This document shows, piece by piece, positions 31,078 through 63,209 of a DNA stretch of 64,000 bases. The notes under the pieces are model-generated. The model was not told the origin of the DNA. It did not search any database and was given only the letters and a program-made list of their open reading frames with translations. Made by a program: the position numbers and the translations under genes. This DNA comes from an uncultured Bacilli bacterium (GTDB taxonomy: Bacteria > Bacillota_I > Bacilli_A > RF39 > UBA660), in contig CANQID010000001.1 in NCBI GenBank assembly GCA_947623925.1, forward strand, positions 4,047 through 68,046, written 5' to 3'. Every line of letters begins with the position of its first letter. Position 1 is the stretch's first letter.

Positions 31078-31087
31078 GGAGATAAAT

Positions 31088-33796: not shown

Positions 33797-33830
33797 TTCG
33801 TTTTGTGTTAAAATATACATGGTGGTATTA

Positions 33831-34889
33831 ATGGAATTAAATATTATGTTAAAAATAATTTTAATGGTTTGTTGTACATTTTTCTTTGTTGCTTTATTTA
33901 TTCCTGTTGTAAAAAAAATAGCAAATCATGTTGGAGCACTTGATATTCCAAATGAAAGAAAAGTTCATAAAAAACCTATGCCTAGATTAGGTGGGATAGG
34001 AATATATGCAGGATTTTTGTTTGGGTATATGATTTTTTGTGAGCCTACACCCCTTATGAATTCTGTTTTAATAGGAAGTTTTATAATAGTATTTACAGGT
34101 ATAGTTGATGATATTAAACCGATAAAAGCTAAATATAAGTTAATAGGTCAATTTTTAGCTGCATTAATTGTTGTATGTTATGGTGGTTTATTAATTAAAG
34201 ATTTAAGTGCATTTGGTTTTTATATAAATTTTGGATATTTTTCTTATCCTATAACTATATTATTTATATTAGGTTGTATAAATTGTATGAATTTAATTGA
34301 TGGACTAGATGGATTAGCTGGTGGTATAAGTTCTATATTCTTTTTAACAATTGGAATAATTGCTACTATGAAGGGAAGTTTTAATACAAGTTTTTTACTA
34401 ACTTTTATAATGCTTGGATCAACACTTGGATTTCTAGTTTACAATTTTAATCCTGCTAGTATATTTATGGGTGATTCTGGAAGTATGTTTTTAGGATTTA
34501 TTATATCTGTTATAACTTTAATGGGGTATAAAAATGTTATGATGTCTTCACTTATAATTCCATTATTAATACTTGCTATTCCAATATTAGATACTTTGTT
34601 TGCTATTATTAGAAGAAGTTTAAAAGGTGAAAAAGTGTCAGAACCTGATAAATATCATATACATCATCAATTATTAAATAGAAATTTAAGTCAAAGAGCA
34701 ACTGTTGTATGTATATATATAATAAATTTACTTTTTGCTTTTGCTTCTATTGTTTATGTATTAAAAGATCAAATACTTGGATATTTTATATATGGGGTTT
34801 TATTGTTAATTGTTGTATTTTTTGTAGCAAAAACAAATGTTGTTTTTGAACATAAAAATAAAAATGATTCTAAAAGTTCTAAAAAATAG
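33831..34889 (+). CDS. tagO: undecaprenyl-phosphate N-acetylhexosamine-1-phosphate transferase (MraY/WecA/TagO family, GT4 polyprenyl-P sugar-1-P transferase)
   Basis: PNERKVHKKPMPRLGGIGIY, IVDDIKPIKAKYKLIGQ, and 10-11 TM helices. Confidence 0.85.
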   Translation: MELNIMLKIILMVCCTFFFVALFIPVVKKIANHVGALDIPNERKVHKKPMPRLGGIGIYAGFLFGYMIFCEPTPLMNSVLIGSFIIVFTGIVDDIKPIKAKYKLIGQFLAALIVVCYGGLLIKDLSAFGFYINFGYFSYPITILFILGCINCMNLIDGLDGLAGGISSIFFLTIGIIATMKGSFNTSFLLTFIMLGSTLGFLVYNFNPASIFMGDSGSMFLGFIISVITLMGYKNVMMSSLIIPLLILAIPILDTLFAIIRRSLKGEKVSEPDKYHIHHQLLNRNLSQRATVVCIYIINLLFAFASIVYVLKDQILGYFIYGVLLLIVVFFVAKTNVVFEHKNKNDSKSSKK

Positions 34890-34958: not shown

Positions 34959-34988
34959 AATATATGTAGTTTTACTTTTTTGAGGTGT

Positions 34989-39942: not shown

Positions 39943-40871
39943 ATAAAGAAAAAAATTTCGTTTCAGCTGTTGTATATGTAAGGAATAATGAAAATAATAT
40001 TGCTAAATTTATTAAGGAGTTAAATAAGGTATTAAAAACTAACTTTCTTAAATATGAAATTATTTTTGTGAATGATTATTCTACTGATAATACTGTTTAT
40101 GAAATTAAAAAGTTAGTTAAAACTTTGGATACTGCTAGTATAAGTATAATAAATATGAGTATGTATCAAGGAAAAGAAATCGCTATGAATGCTGGTGTTG
40201 ATTTATCAATTGGTGATTTTGTTTATCAATTTGATACAATTTTAATGGATTACGATCCTAATGTTATATTTGATATTTATAAAAAATCATTAGAAGAGTA
40301 TGATATCGTTAATGCTGTTCCAAATAAAAAAAGAAAAGTTTCTTCTAAACTATTTTATAAAATATTTAATAAACATGCTAATTTATCTTATAAATTAGAT
40401 ACTGAAACTTTTAAAATAATATCAAGAAGAGCAATAAATAGAATTTATGCAATAAACAAAACAGTGCCTTATAGAAAAGCAATCGAAGCTGGTAGTGGCT
40501 TAAGAATGGCGAATGTAGAATATGAAGTAGTTAATAATGTTGATTATAAATTAGATAAAACAATTCAAAAAGAAAGAAGAAAAACCGCTGTAAATTCTTT
40601 AATATTATTTACTGATGTAAGTTATAAAATAGCCTTAACTTTATCACTTATAATGATGCTTTTAGTTGTATTAACTGGATGTTATACAGTTGTTATATTT
40701 TTAAGAAATGAAGCTATTAAAGGTTGGACAACTACTATGTTATTTTTAGCTTTTGGATTCTTTGGTATATTTTTAATATTTACAATTATAATTAAGTATT
40801 TATCTATTATTTTAAACCTTGTTTTCAAAAAAACCGATTTCCTAATTGAGTCAGTTCAAAAAATAAAATAG
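39939..40871 (+). CDS. GtrB/CsbB/ArnC-like GT2 polyprenyl-phosphate glycosyltransferase with two C-terminal TM helices
   Basis: N-terminal GT2 fold (VSAVVYVRNNEN..., IIFVNDYSTDNT). Two C-terminal TM helices (IALTLSLIMMLLVVLTG..., TTMLFLAFGFFGIFLIF), the GtrB architecture. Confidence 0.75.
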   Translation: MNKEKNFVSAVVYVRNNENNIAKFIKELNKVLKTNFLKYEIIFVNDYSTDNTVYEIKKLVKTLDTASISIINMSMYQGKEIAMNAGVDLSIGDFVYQFDTILMDYDPNVIFDIYKKSLEEYDIVNAVPNKKRKVSSKLFYKIFNKHANLSYKLDTETFKIISRRAINRIYAINKTVPYRKAIEAGSGLRMANVEYEVVNNVDYKLDKTIQKERRKTAVNSLILFTDVSYKIALTLSLIMMLLVVLTGCYTVVIFLRNEAIKGWTTTMLFLAFGFFGIFLIFTIIIKYLSIILNLVFKKTDFLIESVQKIK

Positions 40872-42882: not shown

Positions 42883-43179
42883 ATGCTAGTATCGTCTATA
42901 TTTGCCTGTACAGGTCAATTATTATGGAAATTATCTGCTAATGGTAATATAATATTGTTATTGTGTGGCTTCTGTTTATATGGTTTAGGTGCATTAGTTA
43001 TGCTCTATGCTTATAAGTTTGGGAGCTTATCAGTTCTTCAACCTATTTTAAGTGCTAACTATATTTTTACAATTATTTTAGGAGGATTAATTTTAAAAGA
43101 AGTGATAACAATTAAAAAGGTTATAGGAATACTTATTATTATGGTTGGTGTCATCTTAATTGGTGGTGGCGAAAAATGA
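42883..43179 (+). CDS. small 4-TM DMT/SMR-like transporter subunit (ArnE-like putative polyprenyl-P-sugar flippase subunit)
   Basis: 98-aa product with 3-4 TM helices and the EamA/SMR-like GxxxG pattern. Overlaps the following paralogue by 4 nt. Confidence 0.6.
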   Translation: MLVSSIFACTGQLLWKLSANGNIILLLCGFCLYGLGALVMLYAYKFGSLSVLQPILSANYIFTIILGGLILKEVITIKKVIGILIIMVGVILIGGGEK

Positions 43180-43505
43180 TAAAGTATTACTTAATTTTAA
43201 TAATAATGACTTTTATGGGTTCTATTGCATCTTTATTTTTAAAAAAAACATCTAGTGCTGGTAATTTTATAAGTATGTTAAAAAATATAAATCTTTATAT
43301 TGGAGGTATTTTATATGTAATATCAGCCTTATTAAATATTTATCTTTTAAAATATTTAGATTATTCAATTGTTTTACCAATGACATCTATAACTTATATT
43401 TGGACTCTTATAATATCTGCTAAAATATTAAAAGAGAAAATAACTTTAAATAAAGTACTTGGAGTTACAAGTGTTATTATTGGTGTAATTATATTGGTTA
43501 TATAA
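43176..43505 (+). CDS. small 4-TM DMT/SMR-like transporter subunit (ArnF-like)
   Basis: 109-aa paralogue of the previous gene. Paired small subunits are typical of ArnE/ArnF. Confidence 0.6.
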   Translation: MIKYYLILIIMTFMGSIASLFLKKTSSAGNFISMLKNINLYIGGILYVISALLNIYLLKYLDYSIVLPMTSITYIWTLIISAKILKEKITLNKVLGVTSVIIGVIILVI

Positions 43506-43704
43506 ATAAATATAAAGGTTATAGTATTTGTATTAAATAAAATAACATAATACGTTAAAATATATTTATAAATAAGTTTAATGTCATTATTATGAAATAT
43601 ATATTTAATCATAACATGGATAAATTATAAAAAGAAAAATTCCCTTTGATTTATGCTTTATCTTTTATATGTAATGTATATGATTATATAAGTAGTTAAA
43701 GAAG

Positions 43705-43741
43705 ATTGTCATTTATATTTTTTGTAGATGACAATTTTTTA
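43705..43741 (+). terminator. rho-independent terminator
   Basis: ATTGTCAT (43705-43712) / ATGACAAT (43728-43735) with a 15-nt loop, followed by TTTTTT. Confidence 0.55.
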
Positions 43742-43761
43742 AGTTTTATATTAGAAAACAT

Positions 43762-43830
43762 AACTTTTTTTGTAAATAATAGTAAAAATGGCAATAAATC
43801 TTAAAAAAAATGTATAAATATGGTATAATT
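43762..43830 (+). promoter_or_regulatory. promoter module copy 2 with extended -10 (TGgTATAAT at 43821-43829)
   Basis: Near-identical to 34890-34958. Drives the phosphonate operon. Confidence 0.55.
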
Positions 43831-43881
43831 TTATTTAGGACTTAAAATTAAATTAAGCTGATTTTTTAAGAGGAGATTGAA

Positions 43882-44961
43882 TTGAGTATGTTAAATTTTA
43901 CAGTAGGACCGGTACAGTCTAGTGATAATGTAAGAAAAATTGGTGGTGAACAAGTACCATATTTTAGAACAGAAGAGTTCTCAAATATCATGTTAGAAAA
44001 CGAAAGATTAATTAAAAAATTTTCCAATTCTGGTGAAAATTCTAGAGTAGTATTTATAACAGGCTCTGGTACTGCTTCTATGGAAGCATCTGTTATAAAT
44101 ACTCTTACGAGAGAAGATAAATTATTAATAGTAAATGGTGGTAGTTTTGGACAAAGATTTGCAGAAATTTGTAATATACATGAACTTAATTATACTGAAA
44201 TAAAACTTGAAAGTGGTTGCAAATTAAAATCAAGTGATTTAGAACCATATGATAATAAAGGATATACTGCATTTATTGTTAATGTAGATGAAACATCTAC
44301 AGGAGTATATTATGATTTGAATTTAATTCATGAATTTTGTAAAAAAAATAATTTATTTTTAATAGTAGATGCAATAAGTTCATTTTTAGCAGATGAACTT
44401 GATATGCAAAAATATGAAATAGATGTTATGATCACAGGTTCTCAAAAAGCACTTGCTTGTCCACCTGGAATTTCAGTAATAGTACTTAGAGAAAATGCTT
44501 TAAAAAGAGTCCAAAATACTAATCCTAAATGTATGTATTTGGATTTAAAAAATGCACTATTAAATGGAGAAAGAGGTCAAACTCCTTTTACACCTGCTGT
44601 TGGAATTTTACTTCAAATAAATGAAAGACTAAAAGAAATAGAAAAAAATGGTGGAGTAGAATCTGAAATAAGAAAAATATCATCTATTGCGAATGACTTT
44701 AGAAATAGAATAAAAGATTTGCCTTTAAAAATAACATCAGAATCTTTATCAAATGCTGTAACACCATTATCTCCTTTAAATGTTTCAGCATATGATGTCT
44801 TTCTTACATTAAAAGATAAATATGACATATGGGTTTGTCCAAATGGGGGAGATTTAAAAGAAAAAATCTTTAGAGTTGGTCATATTGGAGATTTAACAAT
44901 TGAAGATAATGATAAATTGATATTAGCTTTAAAAGATATGGCAGATAAGCATTTATTATAA
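43882..44961 (+). CDS. class V aminotransferase, putative 2-aminoethylphosphonate:pyruvate aminotransferase (PhnW/AEP transaminase-like)
   Basis: AGT/class-V PLP fold (FTVGP, ITGSGTASMEA, PLP-lysine context ITGSQKALACPPG). First gene of an operon that also encodes PEP mutase and phosphonopyruvate decarboxylase. The start may be TTG 43882 or ATG 43888. Confidence 0.65.
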   Translation: MSMLNFTVGPVQSSDNVRKIGGEQVPYFRTEEFSNIMLENERLIKKFSNSGENSRVVFITGSGTASMEASVINTLTREDKLLIVNGGSFGQRFAEICNIHELNYTEIKLESGCKLKSSDLEPYDNKGYTAFIVNVDETSTGVYYDLNLIHEFCKKNNLFLIVDAISSFLADELDMQKYEIDVMITGSQKALACPPGISVIVLRENALKRVQNTNPKCMYLDLKNALLNGERGQTPFTPAVGILLQINERLKEIEKNGGVESEIRKISSIANDFRNRIKDLPLKITSESLSNAVTPLSPLNVSAYDVFLTLKDKYDIWVCPNGGDLKEKIFRVGHIGDLTIEDNDKLILALKDMADKHLL

Positions 44962-44982
44962 TATAAAAATGGAAGTGATATA

Positions 44983-46335
44983 TTGACTAGAGTAATTACT
45001 TATGGAACATATGATTTGTTACATTATGGACATATACGTTTATTAGAAAGAGCTAAACAATTAGGAGATTACTTAATTGTTGCAGTTACTTCAGATGACT
45101 TTGATAAAAAAAGAGGTAAAATTAATGTAAAACAATCATTAATGGAACGTATAGAAGCAGTAAGAAATACAGGACTTGCTGATGAGATTATAGTTGAAGA
45201 ATATGAAGGGCAAAAAATTGATGATATTAAAAGATATAATATTGATATATTTACTGTCGGATCTGATTGGAAGGGTAAATTTGATTATTTAAAAGAATAT
45301 TGTGATGTAGTGTATTTAGATAGAACGGAAGGTATTTCAAGTTCTAAACTTCGTTCAGAAACAACAACTCTTAAATTAGGAATAGTAGGTAACATTAAAC
45401 TTGCAGAAAAGTATATAACTGAAAGCAAATTTGTAAATGGATTAGAAATAGTTTCAATTTGTACAAATGATATTATTGAATTTGATACCGAAAATTTACA
45501 AAAATATTCTTATGATGAATATGATAAATTTTTAAGTAATATTGATGCAGTATATGTAGTATCTAATCCTAATGAACATTTTAATTTTGTTGATGAGGCA
45601 ATTAAAAATAAAAAACATGTTTTGTGTGAAACACCAATATGTTTAAAAAAAGATGAATGTTTATTATTATTTAAACAAGCTAAAGAAAATGGTGTAATAT
45701 TAATGGAGTCTAATAAGACTGCTTATTCAACTGCTTTTAATAGACTCTCATTATTAGTAAAAACAGGTTTAATAGGAAAAATTGTCTCAGTAGATGCAAC
45801 TTGTACAAGCATGGAAGAATATTTAAAGACAAATATAGAAGATATGCCAAAAAAACAAAATAGTATGTGTGCTTGGGGGTCTGTCGCTTTAGTTCCTATA
45901 TTTCAGTTGTTAGGAACGAATTATAACAAAATTCATTTTAGCACTTATTATTTAGATAAAAATATAAATTTTGATTTGTTTACGAAAGTAGATTTTAACT
46001 ATAATAATGCAGTTGCCTCTATAAAGGTTGGAAAAGGTGTTAAATCAGAGGGGGAACTTATTATTACAGGCACTAAAGGTTATATTTATGTCCCATCTCC
46101 TTGGTGGAAAACAGATTACTTTGAGATAAGATATGAATCACAAAATGACAATAAAAGATATTTCTATCAACTTGATGGTGAAGGCATAAGATATGAATTA
46201 GTAACTTTTCTTAAATCTGTTGAAAATGAAAAAAATTTATCATATATAGAACAAGAAATTAGTGAAGCAATAACTTTAGTTATTGAGAAATTTAATAATA
46301 AAGAAAATTTAGATGAAATATTTGTAGAAAGTTAG
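44983..46335 (+). CDS. bifunctional fusion: TagD-like glycerol-3-phosphate cytidylyltransferase domain + Gfo/Idh/MocA-family NAD(P)-dependent oxidoreductase domain
   Basis: N-terminal 130 aa closely match TagD (VITYGTYDLLHYGHIRLLERAKQLGDYLIVAV, DIFTVGSDWKGKFDYL, RTEGISSSKLR). C-terminal ~310 aa have a Gfo/Idh/MocA Rossmann region (LKLGIVGNIKLAEKYI, HVLCETP). Confidence 0.8.
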   Translation: MTRVITYGTYDLLHYGHIRLLERAKQLGDYLIVAVTSDDFDKKRGKINVKQSLMERIEAVRNTGLADEIIVEEYEGQKIDDIKRYNIDIFTVGSDWKGKFDYLKEYCDVVYLDRTEGISSSKLRSETTTLKLGIVGNIKLAEKYITESKFVNGLEIVSICTNDIIEFDTENLQKYSYDEYDKFLSNIDAVYVVSNPNEHFNFVDEAIKNKKHVLCETPICLKKDECLLLFKQAKENGVILMESNKTAYSTAFNRLSLLVKTGLIGKIVSVDATCTSMEEYLKTNIEDMPKKQNSMCAWGSVALVPIFQLLGTNYNKIHFSTYYLDKNINFDLFTKVDFNYNNAVASIKVGKGVKSEGELIITGTKGYIYVPSPWWKTDYFEIRYESQNDNKRYFYQLDGEGIRYELVTFLKSVENEKNLSYIEQEISEAITLVIEKFNNKENLDEIFVES

Positions 46336-46343
46336 GTTATAGT

Positions 46344-47231
46344 ATGACTGAGGTAAAAGAATTAACAAAAGAAGAATTCAGAAAAATGCAATTAATGCAG
46401 TTAGATATGATTAAAGAACTTGATAGGGTGTGTAGAAAACATAACATTAAATATACAATATTTGCGGGCACATTACTTGGAGCAGTAAGACATAAAGGAT
46501 ATATACCATGGGATGATGATGCTGATATTGCCATGTTAAGAGAAGAATATGAAAAGTTTAAATTAGTTGCAGATGAATTAGATTCAAGTATATGTTATTT
46601 TCAAGACCATACTACTGATCCTAATTACAGATGGGGGTATGCAAAATTAAGACGAACTAATACTGAATATATTAGGGTTGGTCAAGAACACTTAAAATGT
46701 AAAACTGGATTTTTTATAGATATTTTTCCAATGGATGATATTCCAAAATCTACAATTGGTCAAGTTTTTAATGATTTTTATTGCTTTTGCTTGAGAAAAA
46801 TATTATATTCTGAGGTTGGCAAAGTTTCAAAAAGTGAAAGTAAATTATCAAGAAAATGGTATTCATTATTGTCAAAAATTCCAACTAATAAAGTATGGAA
46901 AAGATTAGATAAAATGACAAAAAAAAGTAATAATTCTAGTGAAAATAGAGTTAGAATATATCTTTTCCCTTCACTTGGAAAATCAAATAAAAAAAATTCA
47001 TTAAAGACAAAGTATGGAATGCCAAAGGAATGGTTTTTAAATTTTAACGAATATGATTTTGAAGAAAATAAATTTTATGGTACAGCTGATTATGATTCTT
47101 GTTTAAAATATCTTTATGATGACTATATGAAGTTACCACCTGAAGATAAAAGAGAGCAACACTCACCAACTTCTTCATATAGTTTTGATACGACAATTAG
47201 AAATAAAATTCGAGAGGATGATAATAAATGA
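46344..47231 (+). CDS. licD: LicD-family phosphotransferase (CDP/CMP-activated phospho-head-group transferase, fukutin/LicD superfamily)
   Basis: MQLMQLDMIKELDRVCRKHNIKYTIFAGTLLGAVRHKGYIPWDDDADIAM (LicD DxD core) and a conserved downstream D.F.D segment (GFFIDIFPMDD). Confidence 0.8.
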   Translation: MTEVKELTKEEFRKMQLMQLDMIKELDRVCRKHNIKYTIFAGTLLGAVRHKGYIPWDDDADIAMLREEYEKFKLVADELDSSICYFQDHTTDPNYRWGYAKLRRTNTEYIRVGQEHLKCKTGFFIDIFPMDDIPKSTIGQVFNDFYCFCLRKILYSEVGKVSKSESKLSRKWYSLLSKIPTNKVWKRLDKMTKKSNNSSENRVRIYLFPSLGKSNKKNSLKTKYGMPKEWFLNFNEYDFEENKFYGTADYDSCLKYLYDDYMKLPPEDKREQHSPTSSYSFDTTIRNKIREDDNK

Positions 47232-48535
47232 ATAAAAAAGTATATATAGCTATGTCCGCTGATTTTATTCATGATGGTCATATTAATGTAATAGAAGAAG
47301 GCTCAAGATATGGAGATGTAATTATTGGACTTTTAACAGATGAAGCAATAGCAACTTATAAAAGGATGCCATTACTAAATTATGATACTAGAAAGCGCAT
47401 TTTTGAGAACATGAAACATGTTAAAGAAGTAGTAAAGCAAGAAACTTTGGATTATACAAATAATTTAAAAAAAATAAAACCTGATTATGTAATTCATGGA
47501 GACGATTGGAAAAAAGGAATACAAAGTGTTATTAGACAAAAGGTTATTGATACTTTAAAAGAATGGAATGGAAAACTTATAGAAATTCCTTATACTATAG
47601 GTAACAATTGCACAGATTTAGAACATGAATATAGAATGCTAACAAATACACCTGATAATAGAAGAAGTAAACTAAAAAAATTATTAAATTTAAAACCTTA
47701 TATAAGTGTAATGGAAGCATCTAATGGATTAACAGGGTTGATTGTTGAAAATGCAAGAGTTGAAAACGAAAAGACAGGTTATTTAAAAGAATTTGATGCT
47801 ATGTGGGTAAGTAGTTTATGTGATTCTACATTTAAGGGAAAACCTGATATTGAATTAGTTGATTTAACTAGTAGAATAAATACAATTAATGAAATAATGG
47901 AAGTTACTACGAAACCTATAATTTTAGATGGTGATACAGGTGGAAAGGTAGAACACTTTGTTTATAATGTAAAAACACTAGAAAGATTGGGCGTTTCAGC
48001 AATAATAATAGAGGATAAAACTGGTTTAAAGAAAAACTCACTTTTTGGTACAGAAGTAGAACAGACACTTGATGATCCAGATAATTTTGCTAATAAAATT
48101 AGAGCAGGTAAGCAGGCTTTAGTAACTCGTGATTTTTTGATATTTGCTCGTCTAGAAAGTTTAATTGCAGGTAAAGGTATTGATGATGCATTATTTCGTG
48201 CTAAAAAATATTTAGAAGCAGGTGCTGATGGAATAATGATTCATAGCAAAGAAAAAGATGGCTCTGAAATTAAAGAATTTTTGAAAATATTTAGGAAAAA
48301 TTATCCAAATGTTCCAGTAATTGTTGTTCCAACTTCATATAATCAGTTTACTGAAAGTGAATTACATGAGTGGGGAGCAAATATAATAATTCATGCTAAT
48401 CATTTACTTAGAAGTGCATATCCAGCTATGATGAAAACAGCAAAATCAATTTTAGAAAATGGAAGAAGTAAAGAAGCAGATGAATACTGTATGCCTATTA
48501 AAGAAATTTTAACATTAATTCCAGGAGGTAAATAA
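47228..48535 (+). CDS. ppm: fusion: HxGH-type cytidylyltransferase domain + phosphoenolpyruvate phosphomutase (Ppm)
   Basis: N-terminal ~130 aa match the cytidylyltransferase-like family (IAMSADFIHDGHINVI). C-terminal ~290 aa are PEP mutase/ICL superfamily (VMEASNGLTGLIVENA, ILDGDTGGKVEHF, IIEDKTGLKKNSLFG, ARLES). Confidence 0.85.
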   Translation: MNKKVYIAMSADFIHDGHINVIEEGSRYGDVIIGLLTDEAIATYKRMPLLNYDTRKRIFENMKHVKEVVKQETLDYTNNLKKIKPDYVIHGDDWKKGIQSVIRQKVIDTLKEWNGKLIEIPYTIGNNCTDLEHEYRMLTNTPDNRRSKLKKLLNLKPYISVMEASNGLTGLIVENARVENEKTGYLKEFDAMWVSSLCDSTFKGKPDIELVDLTSRINTINEIMEVTTKPIILDGDTGGKVEHFVYNVKTLERLGVSAIIIEDKTGLKKNSLFGTEVEQTLDDPDNFANKIRAGKQALVTRDFLIFARLESLIAGKGIDDALFRAKKYLEAGADGIMIHSKEKDGSEIKEFLKIFRKNYPNVPVIVVPTSYNQFTESELHEWGANIIIHANHLLRSAYPAMMKTAKSILENGRSKEADEYCMPIKEILTLIPGGK

Positions 48536-49645
48536 ATGGTTGATACTGAAAAATTTTATGATTATTTGATTACTAAAAATTTAGATTTTTTTGCAGGGGT
48601 ACCGGATTCTTTATTAAAGAATCTGTGTTCTTGTATTAAAGAAAAATCTGATAAAACGCATAATATTATAACATCAAATGAAGGTAATGCAGTAGCTCTA
48701 GCGTCAGGTTATCATATTTCATCAGGTAAGTATGGTGTTGTATATATGCAAAATTCTGGAATTGGAAATGCGGTTAATCCTTTACTATCTTTAGCTGATG
48801 AAGAGGTTTATAGTATTCCAATGTTATTAATAGTTGGATGGCGTGGAGAGCCTGGCATTAAAGACGAACCTCAACATATTAAACAAGGTAAAGTTACAAT
48901 CGAATTATTTGAAACAATGGGAATAGAGTGTGTTATATTAGATGAAAATTATCAAGAAAAAATAGATTATTGCTATAAATATATAAGCAGTAATAATAAA
49001 CCTATTGCTTTAATTGTAAAAAAAGGTTTATTTACTGAATATAAATCTTCTAAACCAATTAATAATTATTTAATAACTAGAGAAGAAGCTTTAGAAACAA
49101 TTGTAGATTGTTTAAATGAAAATGATTTTATTGTTTCTACAACAGGAAAAACTTCAAGAGAACTTTTTGAAATAAGAGAAAAAAGGAAAGAAAAACATAG
49201 TAATGATTTTTTAACTGTTGGTTCTATGGGACATACTTCTTCTATAGCTCTAGGAATGAGTATTGGCAGTGAAAATAATATATATTGCATTGATGGTGAT
49301 GGTTCATTTATTATGCATATGGGTTCATTTGCAATAATACCTACAGTTGCAAAACAAAATTTTAAGTATATTTTAATAAATAATGGTGCACATGAATCTG
49401 TTGGGGGACAACCTACTGTTGCATTCAATATAGATATTCAAAAAATGTTATTATCATTAGGATTTAAAAATGTATATATTGCAAAAACAAATGAAGAAAT
49501 AAAAAAGTATATGAATAATTTAAAAAATGGTGAATTACAAGCATTAGTAATTTATACTAAATTAGGTTCTAGAGATAATCTTGGAAGACCTACAATTAGT
49601 CCTATAGAAAATAAAAAAGCAATGATGGAAAAATTTAGAAATTAG
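48536..49645 (+). CDS. ppd: phosphonopyruvate decarboxylase (ThDP-dependent)
   Basis: N-terminal FFAGVPDSLLKN, ThDP-binding GDGS...NNG region (IDGDGSFIMHMGS...INNGAHESVGG). Immediately follows ppm. Confidence 0.85.
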   Translation: MVDTEKFYDYLITKNLDFFAGVPDSLLKNLCSCIKEKSDKTHNIITSNEGNAVALASGYHISSGKYGVVYMQNSGIGNAVNPLLSLADEEVYSIPMLLIVGWRGEPGIKDEPQHIKQGKVTIELFETMGIECVILDENYQEKIDYCYKYISSNNKPIALIVKKGLFTEYKSSKPINNYLITREEALETIVDCLNENDFIVSTTGKTSRELFEIREKRKEKHSNDFLTVGSMGHTSSIALGMSIGSENNIYCIDGDGSFIMHMGSFAIIPTVAKQNFKYILINNGAHESVGGQPTVAFNIDIQKMLLSLGFKNVYIAKTNEEIKKYMNNLKNGELQALVIYTKLGSRDNLGRPTISPIENKKAMMEKFRN

Positions 49646-49653
49646 GTGTAGAA

Positions 49654-50382
49654 ATGAAAGCAATTATATTTAATTCTGGTATTGGTAAACGAATGGGTGA
49701 ATTTACAAAAAAGCATCATAAATCAATGGCAGTATTAAAAAATAAAGAAACAATTTTTGAAAGACAGATTAGGATTTTAAGTGAATGTGGAATAAGAGAA
49801 TTTGTTGTTACAACAGGTCCTTTTAAAGAACAACTTATAGAGGTAACTAAAAAGTTTCAAAATTTGAAATTTAATTTTGTTCAAAATGATTTATATGATA
49901 GTACAAACTATATATATTCTATGTATTTAGCTAGAAAAAATTTTGATGATGATTTTTTGTTACTACATGGTGATTTGGTTTTTAATAAAGATTTAGTAGA
50001 AGAAATGATAGGTGAAAAAAATTCAACTTGTTTAATAAATGAAAATAAACCTTTACCTGAAAAAGATTTTAAAGGAAGAATAAAAAATGGTAAATTAAAA
50101 GAAGTTTCAATAAATATTTTTGATCAAGATTGCTATGCTTTTCAACCACTTTACAAGTTAAATAAATCTGATTTATTAGCGTGGTCTAATGCTGTTGAAA
50201 AATTTGTAGAAGAAGGTAATAGAGGTGTATATGCAGAAAATGCATTAAATACAATTTTAAATGATATAAATATATATGCAAAATCATATAGTAATCACTA
50301 TATTGATGAGATAGATAATTTAGAAGATTATAATAGAGTTATAAATGAAATTGAAGAATTTGAAAAATTAAAAACAAAGTAA
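49654..50382 (+). CDS. LicC-like nucleotidyltransferase (putative phosphonate/phospho-head-group cytidylyltransferase, PntC-like)
   Basis: NTP_transferase fold with MKAIIFNSGIGKRMGEFT (G-x-G-x-R). 242 aa, similar in size to LicC. Confidence 0.7.
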   Translation: MKAIIFNSGIGKRMGEFTKKHHKSMAVLKNKETIFERQIRILSECGIREFVVTTGPFKEQLIEVTKKFQNLKFNFVQNDLYDSTNYIYSMYLARKNFDDDFLLLHGDLVFNKDLVEEMIGEKNSTCLINENKPLPEKDFKGRIKNGKLKEVSINIFDQDCYAFQPLYKLNKSDLLAWSNAVEKFVEEGNRGVYAENALNTILNDINIYAKSYSNHYIDEIDNLEDYNRVINEIEEFEKLKTK

Positions 50383-50397
50383 TGTTTGAGGTGATTT

Positions 50398-51492
50398 ATG
50401 AATAATCAACAATTTATTTATAGTTATGATGAAATATCTAATATAATTGATTTAGAACAAAATAATAATATCTTTATTGTATGTGATAAATTTTTAATGG
50501 ATTCATTTATTATAAATTATTTAAAAAAAATAAGTAGAAATATTTTTATATTTACTGAATTTAATCCAAATCCAAAATATGAAGATGTATTATTAGGAAT
50601 TGATTTATTCAAAAAAAATAATTGTAACTTTATAATATCTATAGGTGGTGGTAGTGCTATAGATGTTGCGAAATGTATAAAGGCTTTTGTTACATTAAAT
50701 GATAAAAAAAATTATTTGGAACAGGAAATTATTAAAAATGATATAAATCATTTAGCAATTCCTACAACTGCTGGGACAGGCAGTGAATCTACTCATTTTG
50801 CTGTAATTTATTATGAAGAAAATAAATATTCAGTAGATGATAGTACCTTACTTCCAACTTATGTATTATTGGAATCTAAATTTTTAGAAAGTTTACCAAT
50901 ATATCAAAAAAAATCAACGATGTTAGATGCACTTTGTCAAGGAATAGAATCACTTTGGAGCGTCAATTCAACAGAAGAAAGTAAGGAATATGCTATTAAG
51001 GCTATTCAATTAATTTTAAATAATTATAGAGATTATATTAATGAAAATAAAAGTGTTTATAATGATATTATGTTAGCAGCGAATTACAGTGGGAGAGCTA
51101 TAAATATAAGTAAAACAACTGCACCTCATGCAATGAGTTATAAAATAACATCTTTATATGGAATTAGTCATGGACATGCTGTTGCATTATGTTTACCATA
51201 TGTATGGGAATATATGATTAATAATATAGATAAGATAATTGATAAAAGGGGAGTAAAATATTTAAAAGATATTTTTAATAGACTAGATATATTATTTAAT
51301 TGTGATTCACATATTGAATCAATAAATAAATTTAAGAATATTTGTAGTGAAATAAATTTAAATATTAAAGGTATAGTAAAAAGGAAAGATTTACAACTTT
51401 TGGTTTCTTCAGTGAATATACAAAGATTAAGCAATAATCCAGTTAGTTTAAATAAAGAAGAAATAAAAAAAATATATGAAAAACTTGCTTAG
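50398..51492 (+). CDS. iron-containing (group III) alcohol dehydrogenase, candidate phosphonoacetaldehyde reductase
   Basis: Fe-ADH motifs IISIGGGSAIDVAKCI and IPTTAGTGSEST. It is the last gene of the ppm-ppd operon. Confidence 0.7.
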   Translation: MNNQQFIYSYDEISNIIDLEQNNNIFIVCDKFLMDSFIINYLKKISRNIFIFTEFNPNPKYEDVLLGIDLFKKNNCNFIISIGGGSAIDVAKCIKAFVTLNDKKNYLEQEIIKNDINHLAIPTTAGTGSESTHFAVIYYEENKYSVDDSTLLPTYVLLESKFLESLPIYQKKSTMLDALCQGIESLWSVNSTEESKEYAIKAIQLILNNYRDYINENKSVYNDIMLAANYSGRAINISKTTAPHAMSYKITSLYGISHGHAVALCLPYVWEYMINNIDKIIDKRGVKYLKDIFNRLDILFNCDSHIESINKFKNICSEINLNIKGIVKRKDLQLLVSSVNIQRLSNNPVSLNKEEIKKIYEKLA

Positions 51493-51634
51493 TTTATATG
51501 TACTACTTTACACTCTTATTTTATTGCAACTTTATTTTAATGTGTATATATGGTATACTTTATAGTAAGATATAAAATTTTTATAATATAAATTAATGTT
51601 ATAGTATTAATTAAGACTAGTTTAGAGGTGTTTC

Positions 51635-52660
51635 ATGAAAAAGATAATAGTACCTGTAAGTTATATGGGATCTGGTTCTTCAGCAGTAACCGATTTAATA
51701 AGTGAATTTAAAGATGTAAACAATGAATATGGATATTTTGAATATGTTTTTTTACATTGTCCTGGTGGTGTTTTTGATTTAGAGGATAAATTATTAAATG
51801 GCAATAATATTTTAAGAAGTGACGAAGCAATTAAAAATTTTTTAAATACAATGAAACAACTTTATGATAAAAAATATTGGTGGGTTGGTAATTACAAATA
51901 TAAGATAAATGAAAAATTTTATAGTAGAACAGAACAATATATTAAAGAATTAACAGATTTTTCTTTAAACAGTTATTGGTATTATCAAGAAAATACTAAT
52001 TTAAAAATGTATTTTAAACTTATAGTAAATAAAATAGTTAAATTTATAACATTTGGCAAGGTTAAATTAAAAAGACCTTTGTTATATAATACAATGAATC
52101 TTGCATACCCTTCAAAAGAAAAATTTTATGCTATTACAAAAAAATATATATATGATATTTTAGAAATGTTTGATGATTCTGACAATGATATTTTATTTGA
52201 TCAATTATTGTTACCTTATAATCTTTTTAGAATAGATAATTATTTTAATGACGATTTAAAGGTTATAGTTGTTGAAAGAGATCCACGTGATGTTTTTTTA
52301 CAAAATAAATATATTTATTCTAAAACAAATAATATTGTACCTTTTTCATGTGATGTAGATGAATTTTGTAAGCAATATAGAATGATACGTGAGATGGAAG
52401 TAATAAGTAATAGTTCTAAGATTCTTAGAATTAGATTTGAAGATTTGGTATATAAATATGATAAAACAAAACAAATTATAATGAAATTTTTAGGATATAA
52501 TGAAAAAGATCATATTAATCCAAAGGGGAAATTTGATCCTAGTAAATCAATAAAAAATACCCAATTATTTAAAAAAGAAGAATATGTTAAGGAAGGAAAA
52601 ATTATTGAAAAAAATTTAAAAGAATATTTATATGATTTTGAAGATGAAGAGAGGAATTAA
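51635..52660 (+). CDS. sulfotransferase-family protein (putative polysaccharide sulfotransferase)
   Basis: N-terminal PAPS 5'-phosphosulfate-binding-like loop (VSYMGSGSSAVTDLI) and a 3'-phosphate-binding-like VVERDPRDVFLQ (the RDPRD motif of the Sulfotransfer_3/Stf0 family). Confidence 0.45.
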   Translation: MKKIIVPVSYMGSGSSAVTDLISEFKDVNNEYGYFEYVFLHCPGGVFDLEDKLLNGNNILRSDEAIKNFLNTMKQLYDKKYWWVGNYKYKINEKFYSRTEQYIKELTDFSLNSYWYYQENTNLKMYFKLIVNKIVKFITFGKVKLKRPLLYNTMNLAYPSKEKFYAITKKYIYDILEMFDDSDNDILFDQLLLPYNLFRIDNYFNDDLKVIVVERDPRDVFLQNKYIYSKTNNIVPFSCDVDEFCKQYRMIREMEVISNSSKILRIRFEDLVYKYDKTKQIIMKFLGYNEKDHINPKGKFDPSKSIKNTQLFKKEEYVKEGKIIEKNLKEYLYDFEDEERN

Positions 52661-52661
52661 A

Positions 52662-54299
52662 GTGAAAAATTTATTAGATAAGTTTTCAAATAAAATAGAA
52701 CTGCAAATATTAATTTTTTTAGTTATACAGCCATTTGTTGATATCTATAGGAGTTTACTAGGAAATAAATTAGAAATATTCAACATTTCTTTAGTTGAAA
52801 TTTTTAATTTTGTTTGCATATTTTATTTATTAATTATAAGTTTACATAAGTATAAAAATGAAATTGTAAAATATATAAAATCAAATAAGATAAAAGTAAC
52901 TGTTATTAGTTTAATTTATACCCTTTTCTTCATATTCCATTGTATAAATGTATTAAATTTTAATACAAATATATTAACTGGCTCATCTAATAATATTTTT
53001 GTTGAAATATATTATATTTTAAGAACATATATATTATGTTTATTGTTATTAATGATAGTTTTATTTAATAAATTAGGTAGTTATAAAATAATAAAAACAT
53101 TATCATTTATTTCATTTTTAATAAGTGCATTACTAGTTTTATCTAATATTTTTTGTATCGGTTTTCCTTCGTATAACTATTATGGAAGTGGAAATTATGT
53201 TATTCAAGGGAATATATTTTCTTGGTTTAGCAATTTAAACGCAATAAACGCAGATTCATATACTACAAAATCATTTTTTTATTCAACAAATCAATTATCT
53301 ATAATGCTATTTTGTTTATTGATAATATCAATATTAAATATAAAACTTTCAAAAAGAAAAATTTTATATTTTAGCCTAATTATTAAAATAATTGCAATGT
53401 TAATGTTATCAACTAAAGTTTGTGGCTTAGGTGTTTTTTTAATACTAGGTATATCTATATTAATAGAAATATTGTTACCAATTATTAAAAAAGAAAAGAT
53501 AAATTTTAAACTTATTTCTTATTTTGTATTACTAATTATGGTATATTTTCCATTATTTATTAATTCGCCTGTATATTATAAAACACAAAAGTATATTGCA
53601 AATGAGTCACAATCTGAAACTATTATTGATTCTAACGAAAATTATGATGAAATCATTGATGATGAAATCATTGATGAAAATACAAATAGTAAAAAATATG
53701 ATATATTTACTTTAGCCAATAAGGAAAAATTAACCAAAATGGAAGAAAAAATATTTGTCAGGGAATTGATAAAATACAGATCTAATTTGGGTATTCATGT
53801 TGAATATATCAATTTATATCCTGTTCAAGATAATATTGATTTTTGGAAATATGTAGTAACCTTACCACAAAATGAAAGAATTAATTTTAGAAAATTTAAA
53901 ACTATTATATATCAAGATGTTCTTAATAAAAATGATAATAAAATTTCTGATATTATTTTTGGAATAGGCTATATTTCTAATTTTCCTTATCTCGAAATGG
54001 ATTATATTGGACAAGTAGTATATTTTGGAATTTATGGTCTTATGGTTTTAATTGCTCCTTTCATATTTTGCACAATTTATTATTTAATATATTTAATAAA
54101 ATCTTATGTTGTCAATGGATTTAGAAAAACTTTAAATTATAAACAAATTTACATATTGTTTTTAATTGGTAGTTATTTTCTACTATCATTAATAACAGGA
54201 CATGGTTTTGGAAATATATTTCCAATGTGTGTACTTATTTTTAGTTTGAAAATTTTTAAAGACATGATAGGAGAAAAATATGAAGAAAAGTGTAACTAG
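52662..54299 (+). CDS. polytopic membrane protein, Wzy/O-antigen-ligase-like polymerase candidate (GTG start)
   Basis: ~12 TM helices with a large acidic extracytoplasmic loop. RBS GAGAGG is 8 nt before GTG 52662. The ORF-track start 52632 overlaps the upstream gene by 29 nt. Confidence 0.5.
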   Translation: MKNLLDKFSNKIELQILIFLVIQPFVDIYRSLLGNKLEIFNISLVEIFNFVCIFYLLIISLHKYKNEIVKYIKSNKIKVTVISLIYTLFFIFHCINVLNFNTNILTGSSNNIFVEIYYILRTYILCLLLLMIVLFNKLGSYKIIKTLSFISFLISALLVLSNIFCIGFPSYNYYGSGNYVIQGNIFSWFSNLNAINADSYTTKSFFYSTNQLSIMLFCLLIISILNIKLSKRKILYFSLIIKIIAMLMLSTKVCGLGVFLILGISILIEILLPIIKKEKINFKLISYFVLLIMVYFPLFINSPVYYKTQKYIANESQSETIIDSNENYDEIIDDEIIDENTNSKKYDIFTLANKEKLTKMEEKIFVRELIKYRSNLGIHVEYINLYPVQDNIDFWKYVVTLPQNERINFRKFKTIIYQDVLNKNDNKISDIIFGIGYISNFPYLEMDYIGQVVYFGIYGLMVLIAPFIFCTIYYLIYLIKSYVVNGFRKTLNYKQIYILFLIGSYFLLSLITGHGFGNIFPMCVLIFSLKIFKDMIGEKYEEKCN

Positions 54300-55743
54300 T
54301 AATGTTGTATATAATATGTTATTTCAATTTTTTGTAACATTTTTGCCTGTAATAACAACTCCTTATCTATCTAGGACTTTAGGTGTAACTCAAAGTGGTG
54401 TATATTCTTTTGTTGAATCTATAGTTACACTTTTCACTGTGTTTGGAGCAATAGGCACATCATTATATGGATGTAGGAAAATTGCTTATGTTAGAGATGA
54501 TAAAAAACAATTATCTCAAGTTGCATATGAAATATTGACACTTAAATTTTTATTATTGATTCCAATTTGCATAATTTATCTTTTACTTTTTTGTATAAAT
54601 GGTGAATATAGTGTATATTTTATAATAAATATTTTAACCATTATTGGTTCAGCAATAGAAATTGGTTGGTTTTTTAATGGTGTTGAAAATTTCAAATTAG
54701 TTACAATAAGAAATTTTGTAATTAAAATAATATTTGTAATTTGTTTATTTATTTTTATAAAAACACCAGATGATTTATGGAAATATATAGTACTTGTTTG
54801 TGTTAGTAATTTTCTTGGGAATATTTCAATGTGGTTATGTTTACCAAAGTATTTATTACCTATTAAAGAAATTCATAATATTAAACCATTTAAGCATTTA
54901 AAAGAATCATTTACATTATTTATACCACAATCTGCAAATTATGTTTATTCGTTATCTGATAAGACTATGTTAGGAGTATTAACTCCAACTTTAGATAGTG
55001 TCGGCATATATGATTATTCATATAGAATTGTAAAAATGATAATTAGTATATTACAATCAATGGGTTATGTGATTTTATCAAGAATAGCTAATTTGTCAGC
55101 CAATGAGGACAAGAAAGGAATTAAAAAATATATATATAAATCAATTGAGTTTTCTTTATTTTTAGCATTTCCAATGATGTTAGGTTTGGTAGGAATTGCA
55201 GATAGTTTTGTTCCAATATATCTTGGAGAAGAATTTATAGAAGTTTCAAAAGTTATTCTGTTAATAAGCCCACTTGTAGTTATTACATCATTTAATAGTA
55301 TATTAGGAGTACAATTGTTATTAGCTTTAAAAAAAGATAAACAATATACAGTTGCAACTGTAACAGGTGCTGTTGTAAATATATTATCGAATTTTATATT
55401 AATTCCAATTTTAGGAATATATGGAGCATGTATAACTTCATTATTTTCAGAAATTTTAGTTTTAATAATTCAATTTTATTATTCTAGAGAATATGTTTCA
55501 GTTACCAAAATAATGAAAGATAATTTAAAACCATTAATTGCTTCAATAATTATGTTTATTGTATGTAAGGCGTTATCATTTATAAAAATTAACATGGTTT
55601 TCTTGGTTTTAATTCAAATGTTAATTTCTGTTATAGTATATTTTGGATTAATGTTTATGTTTAAAAATAGAATTTTATTTGAAATTTTAAATAAAGTTTT
55701 TGAAATTCTAAAAATTAAGTATCGTTTTAAGGAGGAAGTATAG
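54280..55743 (+). CDS. wzx: Wzx-type polysaccharide flippase (MOP/PST family)
   Basis: 487-aa product with 12-14 TM helices and a polysaccharide-biosynthesis-protein N-terminus (NVVYNMLFQFFVTFLPVITTPYLSRTLGVTQSGVY). Confidence 0.8.
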   Translation: MKKSVTSNVVYNMLFQFFVTFLPVITTPYLSRTLGVTQSGVYSFVESIVTLFTVFGAIGTSLYGCRKIAYVRDDKKQLSQVAYEILTLKFLLLIPICIIYLLLFCINGEYSVYFIINILTIIGSAIEIGWFFNGVENFKLVTIRNFVIKIIFVICLFIFIKTPDDLWKYIVLVCVSNFLGNISMWLCLPKYLLPIKEIHNIKPFKHLKESFTLFIPQSANYVYSLSDKTMLGVLTPTLDSVGIYDYSYRIVKMIISILQSMGYVILSRIANLSANEDKKGIKKYIYKSIEFSLFLAFPMMLGLVGIADSFVPIYLGEEFIEVSKVILLISPLVVITSFNSILGVQLLLALKKDKQYTVATVTGAVVNILSNFILIPILGIYGACITSLFSEILVLIIQFYYSREYVSVTKIMKDNLKPLIASIIMFIVCKALSFIKINMVFLVLIQMLISVIVYFGLMFMFKNRILFEILNKVFEILKIKYRFKEEV

Positions 55744-62462: not shown

Positions 62463-63209
62463 ATGAAATATTGTAATTTAAATATTAATCTTACAAATAA
62501 AAAAGAATTATTTGAAATAGATTCTAATAAAACAAAATGCATAGTAACTTTAAATGCACAGATAATTAGATTAGCTAATACTAATAAAAAATTATTTGAT
62601 TTTGTTAATAGAAATTATGCAACAATAGATGGACAAGTTCCATTGAAAATAGCTAGACTTGTTGATAAAAGATTTAAACAAGTAGAAAAACTATCAGGTA
62701 GTGAAATAGTTTATGATTTTTGTGAATATGCTAAAAAAAATAATATGAAGATATATTTTCTAGGTGGAAAAGAAGATTCAAATAAGCAGGCAGTAAAGAA
62801 TGTAAAGGAAAAATATGGGATCGAAGTAGATGGATATTCTCCATCATATGAAGATTATCCTTTTTCTGAAAAATTTGTTAAAGATTGCATGTCTCATATC
62901 AAAAAATCAAAACCTGATATAATTTTTGTTGGATTTGGAGCACCAAAACAAGAATTTTTTATGAACGATAATTTAGATGAATTGACAAAATGTGGTGTTA
63001 AATTTGCTATAGGTAGTGGGGGAACTGTTGATTTTGTTTCTGGAAAAGTTAAAAGAGCACCAGAAAAAGTAAGTAAAATGGGATTAGAAGGTGTTTATAG
63101 GTTATTTAAGGAATTTAACAAAGCACGTTTTAAAAGAATAATATATTCATTTGGATTTTTTAAATATGTAAAAGGTAAACCTTCTTTTATTAAGGAAGAG
63201 GAGAAGTAA
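62463..63209 (+). CDS. tagA: WecB/TagA/CpsF-family (GT26) glycosyltransferase
   Basis: GT26 motifs (IYFLGGKEDS..., IIFVGFGAPKQEFFM, AIGSGGTVDFVSGKVKRAP, GLEGVYRL). Confidence 0.75.
   Translation: MKYCNLNINLTNKKELFEIDSNKTKCIVTLNAQIIRLANTNKKLFDFVNRNYATIDGQVPLKIARLVDKRFKQVEKLSGSEIVYDFCEYAKKNNMKIYFLGGKEDSNKQAVKNVKEKYGIEVDGYSPSYEDYPFSEKFVKDCMSHIKKSKPDIIFVGFGAPKQEFFMNDNLDELTKCGVKFAIGSGGTVDFVSGKVKRAPEKVSKMGLEGVYRLFKEFNKARFKRIIYSFGFFKYVKGKPSFIKEEEK

Follow-up and report, generated by a model that had tools for sequence, protein, structure and literature searches.

The window analysed here is a 64,000-nucleotide stretch of contig CANQID010000001.1 (positions 4,047 to 68,046) from an uncultured Bacilli bacterium, and it carries seven consecutive plus-strand open reading frames (ORFs), g1 to g7 (43882-51492), within a cell-wall glycopolymer locus that includes TagO-, TagA-, Wzx- and Wzy-type genes. 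This operon probably comprises two independent head-group cassettes, one (cassette B, g4 to g7) supplying 2-hydroxyethylphosphonate (HEP) and the other (cassette A, g1 to g3) supplying an amino-alcohol phosphate. In cassette B, a phosphoenolpyruvate (PEP) mutase, Ppm, would convert PEP to phosphonopyruvate, and a phosphonopyruvate decarboxylase, Ppd, would form phosphonoacetaldehyde, pulling the mutase reaction forward. A dehydrogenase of family PF00465 would then reduce phosphonoacetaldehyde to HEP, which would be joined with cytidine triphosphate to give cytidine monophosphate (CMP)-HEP by the LicC/PntC-like g6, the Fom1-type domain carried on Ppm, or both; 2-aminoethylphosphonate (AEP) would not be a product. 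Cassette A would need no phosphonate: a pyridoxal phosphate (PLP)-dependent aminotransferase would yield an amino-alcohol phosphate, at a guess serinol phosphate from dihydroxyacetone phosphate (DHAP), the TagD-like domain of g2 would activate it as a cytidine diphosphate (CDP)-alcohol, at a guess CDP-serinol, and the LicD protein g3 would move the phospho-alcohol onto the glycan. Sequence tests back the assignment of Ppm and Ppd and the domain make-up of the proteins; which amino-alcohol is formed, what the Gfo-like domain of g2 does, why the operon has two nucleotidyltransferases and how HEP is transferred in this organism we can only infer. An earlier, sequence-only reading of this DNA had proposed that a surface glycan is decorated with a phosphonate; the phosphonate and the surface destination stand, and AEP and a mixed branch at phosphonoacetaldehyde do not. 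The domains of cassette B are as follows.

47240..47623, plus strand: g4 N-terminal domain, Fom1-type cytidylyltransferase (CT), predicted HEP cytidylyltransferase (HDGH motif, match to structure 5x3d)
47672..48526, plus strand: g4 C-terminal domain, PEP mutase, PEP to phosphonopyruvate (TIGR02320, EDKTGLKKNS motif)
48536..49645, plus strand: g5, phosphonopyruvate decarboxylase, phosphonopyruvate to phosphonoacetaldehyde (Pfam TPP_enzyme_N/C, TIGR03297)
49654..50382, plus strand: g6, LicC/PntC-like nucleotidyltransferase (NT) of a HEP-linked clade, predicted second CMP-HEP-forming enzyme (Pfam NTP_transf_3, His105, fusion pattern)
50398..51492, plus strand: g7, PF00465 alcohol dehydrogenase (Fe-ADH), predicted phosphonoacetaldehyde reductase of the PhpC/FomC type making HEP (Pfam Fe-ADH and ADH_Fe_C, synteny)

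The g4 ORF (47228-48535) contains the Pfam domains CTP_transf_like and PEP_mutase and scores 391.6 bits against TIGR02320, the NCBIfam equivalog model for Ppm (cut-off 319.55), compared with 133 bits for the phosphonopyruvate hydrolase model and 95 bits for PrpB (methylisocitrate lyase). The sequence EDKTGLKKNS lies at g4 residues 262-271, and the motif is found in 74 of 74 homologues; an EDKXXXXXNS motif separates Ppm from its isocitrate-lyase relatives (methods of Rice et al. 2019, PMC6697681). The outcome that had been raised against the sequence-only reading, a Ppm domain lacking the catalytic residues and grouping with the lyases, is not what is observed, as the motif is present and the Ppm model scores far higher. 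Following g4 with a gap of 0 nt, g5 scores 436.8 bits against the Ppd equivalog TIGR03297 (cut-off 312.5). For comparison of gene neighbourhoods, 306 of 331 candidate stretches (one genome per species) were found to encode a g4 relative, and the best 80 loci were compared; a second set, seeded with g2, comprised 79 loci retrieved from at least 528 full-length metagenome relatives. Ppd lies immediately 3′ of Ppm in approximately 70 of the 80 g4-seeded loci. Since Ppm and Ppd both score above their equivalog cut-offs and the Ppm motif is present, synthesis of phosphonoacetaldehyde is well supported, and the committed route to this intermediate proposed earlier is upheld by TIGR02320, TIGR03297 and EDKTGLKKNS.

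The fate of phosphonoacetaldehyde is suggested by the conserved neighbourhood. The order g4-g5-g6-g7 is kept in approximately 65 to 70 of the 80 g4-seeded loci, from many Bacillota, some Actinomycetota and one archaeon, and g1 and g2 are not part of the block conserved across them; the cultured Yeguia hominis NSJ-40 (L023) is among the carriers of the HEP core. Bona fide AEP transaminases (AEPTs), used as queries, detected no AEPT-like gene within approximately 10 kb of the core loci (CT::Ppm, Ppd, NT, Fe-ADH; double colons mark fusions). An AEPT is found only in L075 and L082 of the 80 loci, directly behind Ppd, and the NT and Fe-ADH genes are absent there. AEPT and NT/Fe-ADH are mutually exclusive branches after CT::Ppm-Ppd in these loci, contrary to the proposal that a reductase and a transaminase both act on phosphonoacetaldehyde. 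The NT and Fe-ADH form a single fused ORF of approximately 590 aa in 50 of 69 related loci (e.g., L025 12422-14185) and are separate in the clade of the window.

Both putative cytidylyltransferases fit this branch. The N-terminal domain of g4, with HDGH at residue 15, matches the cytidylyltransferase (CyTase) structure of Fom1 (5x3d) with 160 bits (E 7e-46), and in the fosfomycin pathway Fom1 CyTase acts on HEP, giving CMP-HEP (Cho 2017, as cited in PMC6697681). The score of g6 against Tde-PntC (6pd1) is 26.5 bits, compared with 173 bits for the AEP-linked homologue of L159. In Tde-PntC the amino group of AEP is contacted by Glu104 (Rice et al. 2019, PMC6697681). In an alignment anchored on the Tde-PntC structure, 'ESD', containing Glu104, is kept in all four AEP-linked PntC-like proteins, and His105 ('HGD') is found in 63 of 65 HEP-linked NTs, in g6 and in two NT::Ppm fusions. 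Neither in similarity nor in an acidic amine contact does g6 appear to be an AEP-specific PntC, and the fusion of the NT to Fe-ADH in related loci (50 of 69) and its fixed synteny with Ppm-Ppd suggest a putative phosphonate cytidylyltransferase. The fusion and the His in place of Glu104 argue against the former view of the LicC-like enzyme as a CMP-AEP synthase. Nor is the presence of two nucleotidyltransferase families unusual, as had been thought: a Ppm-fused and a separate NT are the rule in this cluster family, and their co-occurrence was remarked on by Rice et al. 2019 (PMC6697681). Protein searches were uninformative on fusions, the closest g6 relatives among the matches listed being stand-alone proteins; the g2 search returned 8000 clusters at E ≤ 1e-30, and the names of g2 and g6 homologues were all generic ('Gfo/Idh/MocA family oxidoreductase', 'NTP transferase domain-containing protein', 'choline kinase').

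The g7 product scores 118.5 bits against Pfam Fe-ADH and has a fixed place behind Ppm-Ppd-NT. Its predicted role as a reductase is backed by this synteny and by the fusion, and the phosphonate-associated model TIGR03405 (PsrA/Phn_Fe-ADH) is the top NCBIfam match of the fused NT::Fe-ADH homologue. Characterised PhpC-type enzymes are very divergent (PMC13576164). The synteny, the exclusion of AEPT, the NT::Fe-ADH fusion, the Fom1 match and His105 together lead to CMP-HEP as the predicted product of g4 to g7, the HEP branch being predicted from conserved synteny, gene fusions and non-orthologous displacement.

Variants of the HEP core were also observed. In L113 (7452-9461) and L146 (1744-3786) it is Ppm that carries the LicC-like (PF12804) domain, and Fe-ADH and Ppd come after it, an arrangement that is a second HEP cluster type, adjoining a g1-g2(-LicD) cassette. 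In L035, L040, L041, L046, L058 and L062, metagenome-assembled genomes (MAGs) labelled uncultured Clostridia, Ruminococcus sp. or Clostridiales, the core CT::Ppm, Ppd and NT::ADH lies in a recurring neighbourhood, with a P-type ATPase-like, a penicillin-binding-protein-like and usually an O-antigen-ligase-like ORF and an HD-domain protein upstream, mostly a glycosyltransferase family 8-like gene thereafter and no LicD or TagF-like gene near; of these labels only the HD domain is Pfam-confirmed, the remainder being assigned by reading the sequences.

The genes of cassette A precede those of cassette B.

43882..44961, plus strand: g1, class-V PLP aminotransferase of cassette A (Pfam Aminotran_5)
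44983..45363, plus strand: g2 N-terminal domain, TagD-like cytidylyltransferase, predicted maker of the CDP-activated cassette A head group (HYGH, RTEGISS)
45370..46335, plus strand: g2 C-terminal domain, non-canonical Gfo/Idh/MocA-like (Pfam GFO_IDH_MocA 55.5 bits, N-terminal Rossmann match)
46344..47231, plus strand: g3, LicD-family phosphotransferase, best assigned to cassette A, possibly also serving HEP transfer (Pfam LicD)

The aminotransferase g1 had been taken as the former of AEP. Its best NCBIfam match is indeed the AEPT equivalog TIGR03301, at 168.1 bits (cut-off 360.8), a model on which true AEPTs reach 465 bits (L159) and 408 bits (L075). The nearest solved relative of g1 is PDB 3f0h, deposited just as 'Aminotransferase', with 474 bits, compared with 64-91 bits for AEPT structures. 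A complete AEP cluster with a true AEPT is found in L159 together with a separate g1-g2 pair, and g1 is 76 % identical to the aminotransferase of a Ppm-free cassette in L165. In the g2-seeded set an aminotransferase adjoins g2 in 72 of 79 loci, either of the g1 type upstream (47 of 79, median offset approximately 1.1 kb) or a HisC-like class I/II enzyme downstream (the other 25, median offset approximately 1.3 kb; 241 bits on hisC), and never both; Ppm is present in only 5 of the 79. By equivalog score and by linkage to ppm and ppd, g1 does not appear to be an AEPT, and the sub-threshold score, the orthologues beside TagD::Gfo in Ppm-free loci and the presence of both enzymes in L159 speak against the AEP-forming role. 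The replacement of the g1-type enzyme by a HisC-like one, a non-orthologous displacement, suggests that g2 has a transaminase as its partner and needs no phosphonate.

The two aminotransferase types come from families whose substrates have 2-oxo-3-phosphooxypropyl skeletons, HisC acting on imidazole-acetol phosphate and the class-V enzyme SerC on 3-phosphohydroxypyruvate. The product of g1 is predicted to be an amino-alcohol phosphate, with conversion of DHAP to serinol phosphate as the best guess.

The g2 ORF (44983-46335) contains Pfam CTP_transf_like and GFO_IDH_MocA domains. Its N-terminal domain matches Bacillus subtilis TagD (1coz) with 139 bits and Staphylococcus aureus TarD (2b7l) with 136 bits and carries the HYGH and RTEGISS motifs; the score against the TagD equivalog TIGR01518 is 120.5 bits, below the cut-off of 165.4. 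In the g2 family residues D41 and E75 show at least 98 % conservation; TagD/TarD have N (N41) and W (W74) in their place. Ppm-free LicD-AT-TagD::Gfo cassettes, where AT denotes the aminotransferase, harbour the closest relatives of g2, with 74 % and 71 % identity.

The presence of a LicD-family enzyme, as previously reported, is confirmed by the Pfam score of g3 (147.9 bits, gathering score 22.6). Homologues of g3 with 56-69 % identity accompany g1-g2 in three Ppm-free loci (L083, L084 and L121), and L113 and L042 have such homologues too. As g1, g2 and g3 homologues are found together in Ppm-free loci, and L159 has an AEPT alongside g1-g2, g1 to g3 would form a separate cassette; its independence and its dependence on an aminotransferase are indicated by synteny, fusions and non-orthologous displacement. 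A Ppm-independent cassette for a CDP-activated amino-alcohol phosphate is accordingly rated quite likely, and serinol as its specific product is a tentative choice, with the balance of likelihood lying elsewhere. No mention of CDP-serinol and no published description of the AT, TagD::Gfo and LicD combination were found in the literature searched, and the Streptococcus pyogenes qim operon, compared for similar genes, proved irrelevant.

The joining of two head-group cassettes is rare (2 of approximately 78 Ppm-seeded loci and, for the HEP type, approximately 2 of 79 g2-seeded loci) and nevertheless recurrent, both being found together in the species of the window, L042, L113 and L146. The order in L042 is LicD, CT::Ppm, Ppd, NT::ADH, TagD::Gfo and HisC-like AT, and in L113 it is AT, TagD::Gfo, LicD, NT::Ppm, ADH and Ppd; in L042, L113 and L146, BLAST shows one LicD gene beside or between both modules. 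A LicD and/or TagF-like gene is found within 10 kb of 33 of 65 related HEP cores. An assignment of g3 as the HEP transferase of cassette B was set aside, as its close homologues accompany g1-g2 in Ppm-free loci.

Several observations weigh against this two-cassette interpretation. Two nucleotidyltransferases would serve the single substrate HEP, and g6 has one acidic residue, Glu195, near the head-group site, so that an amine-bearing substrate is possible. The score of g7 against TIGR03405 is 131 bits, well under the cut-off of 423.7. Cassette B is without a transferase of its own in the window, where no second LicD or TagF-like gene was found besides g3 in all 64 kb. As g1 is distantly akin to AEPTs (24-30 % identity), it may have some activity on phosphonoacetaldehyde, and serinol phosphate is one of several possible products of cassette A, phosphoserine-derived or ethanolamine-type head groups being others. 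The EKP catalytic lysine of the Gfo/Idh/MocA proteins is absent in 196 of 196 g2 family members, which have E-[S/A/T]-P, and in g2 of the window non-catalytic residues, W/G and L, stand at the positions of the Asp/His(Tyr) dyad found in the PDB homologue 4had. Without lysine and dyad, a standard dehydrogenase step cannot be assumed for this domain; many invariant residues are kept (K143, E147, N152, K245-T-A-Y248, W298, PWW and DYFE), which indicates a putative function that is conserved but non-canonical. Oxidation of CDP-glycerol by the Gfo domain followed by transamination was downgraded, given the family-wide absence of the canonical lysine.

The recurrent joining could also mean that the cassettes converge on a single composite, such as a HEP ester of a C3 amino-alcohol or glycerol-type unit, which one LicD installs as a head group or whose two parts it links; this is unlikely. 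The four joinings of a HEP core with g2 and an aminotransferase appear independent, differing in gene order, aminotransferase class and Ppm fusion, and each has a single LicD next to or between the modules. However, such joinings are infrequent, each cassette normally works alone, and cassette B often adjoins its own LicD or TagF-like gene; the contigs are also short, and a second transferase may lie beyond the stretch examined. Actinomycete phosphonoglycans, reportedly in work by Yu and colleagues in 2014, release a 2-HEP mono(2,3-dihydroxypropyl) ester, in which HEP forms an ester with a C3 polyol. A zwitterion-like head group of HEP ester-linked to a CDP-derived amino-C3-alcohol phosphate (e.g., serinol phosphate), forming a phosphonate-bearing teichoic-type side chain, would be conceivable at similarly long odds.

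It is improbable that the seven genes encode one pathway branching at phosphonoacetaldehyde, in which g1 forms AEP and g7 HEP, g6 makes CMP-AEP and the Ppm-fused domain CMP-HEP, and LicD adds a mixed AEP/HEP decoration. Such a branch would give two nucleotidyltransferases two substrates, and it agrees with the single tight, apparently co-transcribed block, with AEPT as the best, though sub-threshold, model of g1 and with Glu195 in g6. The shortfall of g1 (168 against 360.8, true AEPTs reaching 408-465 bits), the tie of its orthologues to g2 in Ppm-free loci, its substitution by a HisC-like enzyme never found alongside it, and the pairing of a true AEPT with a g1 orthologue in L159 all count against it, as does His in g6 where the AEP-contacting Glu is expected. 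Both nucleotidyltransferases moreover persist in approximately 65 loci without any aminotransferase.

Two further alternatives are very remote. The Fom1-, Fom2- and FomC-like enzymes are the first fosfomycin steps and could lead to a diffusible natural product, such as a fosfomycin-like or other HEP-derived phosphonate antibiotic, and not to a decorated surface; yet no radical-SAM methyltransferase (Fom3), epoxidase, HEP dioxygenase, ATP-grasp enzyme or nonribosomal peptide synthetase is found among the annotated genes of 26-63 kb, the block sits amid glycosyltransferases and Wzx, Wzy, TagO-like and TagA-like genes, and the blocks of relatives are flanked by TagF-like, TagGH-like and LicD genes. 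Just as implausibly, g6 and g7 could be makers of a CDP-polyol, of which the pneumococcal CDP-2-glycerol route is an example, in keeping with the generic LicC-like character of g6 and the weak matches of g7 to glycerol and glycerol-1-phosphate dehydrogenase models; however, g6-g7 stand in fixed order behind Ppm-Ppd in approximately 65 loci, where phosphonoacetaldehyde would be left with no onward enzyme, and the phosphonate-associated Fe-ADH model tops the NCBIfam matches of the fused form.

Under the favoured reading of two cassettes, cassette B appears to be the HEP-making equivalent of the phosphonyl-tailoring (Pnt) clusters known from Treponema denticola and Atopobium rimae. These clusters, described also in Olsenella uli (Rice et al. 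2019, PMC6697681), likewise have an NT-fused Ppm, Ppd and a second LicC-like NT, which is coupled, and in T. denticola fused (PntC::AEPT, Tde1415), to the phosphonoacetaldehyde-consuming enzyme, paralleling NT::Fe-ADH, and LicD or glycosyltransferase genes lie near, a surface-glycan destination having been proposed. They differ in their AEP transaminase and CMP-AEP, where a PF00465 reductase, a predicted CMP-HEP and His for Glu104 are found here. The same three enzyme types open the fosfomycin pathway of Streptomyces wedmorensis, as Fom1 (CyTase::Ppm), Fom2 (Ppd) and FomC (Fe-ADH); cassette B has no tailoring genes of the Fom3, Fom4 or FomD type, an extra LicC-like NT and a cell-wall glycan context. 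The phosphonoglycans of Glycomyces and Stackebrandtia, and the PhpC-type class of gene neighbourhoods, also involve HEP made by Ppm, Ppd and a PhpC-like alcohol dehydrogenase and attached to exopolysaccharide (Li & Horsman 2022, PMC8942020); those products come from actinomycetes. The HEP type makes up 8.5 % of ppm neighbourhoods (Li & Horsman 2022, PMC8942020), and the only sources from which HEP-derived products have been isolated are Stackebrandtia exopolysaccharide and Nitrosopumilus (PMC8942020). For the Bacillota CT::Ppm-Ppd-NT(::)ADH family no isolated product was found in the literature searched. A HEP core is present in most of the best 80 of the 306 CT::Ppm-bearing stretches from species-representative genomes; if the prediction is true, HEP would join AEP among the phosphonates common on the cell surface of Bacillota from gut and rumen, with relevance to gut phosphorus cycling and to phage or immune recognition of cell walls. 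The product of a Pnt cluster could then be read by a simple sequence rule, Fe-ADH or AEPT behind Ppm-Ppd and His or Glu in the LicC-like enzyme.

As in the Lic pathway for phosphocholine (LicC, LicD) and in CDP-glycerol synthesis by TagD/TarD, cassette A would activate a small phospho-alcohol by cytidylylation before a LicD-type enzyme transfers it; it departs from them in needing an aminotransferase, in its fused non-canonical Gfo-like domain, in D41/E75 and in its sub-cut-off TagD score. Cj1437 of Campylobacter jejuni is a DHAP transaminase making (S)-serinol phosphate for surface polysaccharide decoration (PMC12096443), a precedent for a PLP transaminase that turns a glycolytic keto-phosphate into an amino-alcohol phosphate, as predicted for g1; in that route an ATP-dependent amide ligase takes up the serinol phosphate, and neither cytidylyl activation nor LicD is involved. 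The widespread AT, TagD::Gfo-like and LicD cassette might define a kind of amino-alcohol phosphate decoration not described before in the walls of gut Bacillota. If the two-cassette reading is right, this very abundant unnamed cassette could be a way to a cationic wall decoration of a new kind, and a common aminotransferase family, which already has a solved structure of unknown function in PDB 3f0h, would no longer be mis-annotated as AEP transaminase.

The organisation of the operon agrees in large part with the sequence-only reading. The seven ORFs, their spacing (gaps from g1 to g7 of 21, 8, -4, 0, 8 and 15 nt) and, in a Pfam search of g1 to g7, every domain assigned earlier were reproduced. 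Two elements precede g1.

43700..43740, plus strand: terminator-like hairpin and U-run (RNA fold -18.2 kcal/mol, z = -6.7, 0 of 200 shuffles equal)
43801..43829, plus strand: promoter-like site, TTAAAA-17 nt-TATAAT with TG upstream of the -10 (10 of 12 matches)

The hairpin is likely the terminator of the upstream unit that ends in a pair of EamA-like genes, and so the 5′ boundary of the operon, which supports a new transcription start before g1. A single extended -10 promoter had been proposed for all seven genes; the TG-extended -10 (TGgTATAAT, at approximately 43821-43829) is present, with a GAGGAG ribosome-binding site at 43870. Promoter-like sites are, however, no more frequent than chance predicts (94 observed, 91.7 expected from shuffles) in this DNA of 24 % GC, which leaves the g1 promoter plausible and not demonstrated, and a single promoter for the seven genes no more than a proposal. 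The 142-nt gap 3′ of g7 has no terminator-like fold (z = +1.2), so transcription may continue into the sulfotransferase-like, Wzy-like and Wzx genes that come next on the same strand. A scan of 43400-51700 against Rfam matched no RNA family, hence no riboswitch leader. The sulfotransferase-like protein directly 3′ of g7 (51635-52660; Pfam 26.0 bits, just below the gathering score) has homologues near the HEP core in L007 (55 % identical) and near the g1-g2 pair in L103 (34 %).

The window shows 97-100 % protein identity to L013, a rabbit-gut MAG labelled 'uncultured Bacilli bacterium'. The glycopolymer locus extends over 33.8-63.2 kb and contains a TagO/WecA-like glycosyltransferase family 4 (GT4) protein, several GT2 and GT1 proteins, an acyltransferase, Wzy-like, Wzx, UbiA and HAD proteins and a WecG/TagA-family glycosyltransferase (GT).

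33819..34889, plus strand: GT4, TagO/WecA-like initiating transferase (Pfam Glycos_transf_4 138 bits)
52632..55743, plus strand: Wzy-like (O-antigen ligase-like) protein (52632-54299; Pfam O-antigen_lig 60 bits) and Wzx flippase (54280-55743; Polysacc_synt 108 bits), directly downstream of the operon
62463..63209, plus strand: WecG/TagA-family GT, linkage-unit type (Pfam Glyco_tran_WecG 141 bits)

The Wzx/Wzy/TagO-type context described earlier is thus verified by Pfam, and it makes a surface-glycan destination reasonable. The TagO/WecA-like GT4 and the WecG/TagA-family GT stand at the two ends of the locus, a bracket that suggests a teichoic-acid-type linkage unit for the polymer.

Between 39939 and 43505 lie a GT2 (39939-40871), a 651-aa multi-pass membrane protein without a Pfam match (40879-42834) and two small EamA/SMR-like proteins (42883-43179 and 43176-43505), which together resemble a three-component set for glycosylation from polyprenol-phosphate sugars, with a transferase like ArnC/GtrB, a flippase pair like ArnE/F and a GT-C-like transferase. 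Four other proteins, an FAD oxidoreductase (38809-39942), one of 568 aa that has no Pfam match (59030-60736), a member of the UbiA prenyltransferase family (60738-61580) and a HAD hydrolase (61582-62241), recall the synthesis of lipid-linked pentose donors of the decaprenyl-phospho-ribose/arabinose type. A 589-aa protein (34938-36707) fuses an RmlD/epimerase-like NAD domain to a xylose-isomerase-like TIM barrel (AP_endonuc_2).

Ahead of the glycan locus, the window encodes an SH3/dockerin protein and a cadherin-like protein (28939-32569). The same two types stand ahead of the Ppm-free LicD-AT-TagD::Gfo cassette in L165 and L166 (L165 4022-12154), where the cassette is followed by a GNAT acetyltransferase and a TagO-like GT4, the acetyltransferase hinting at N-acetylation of the amino head group.

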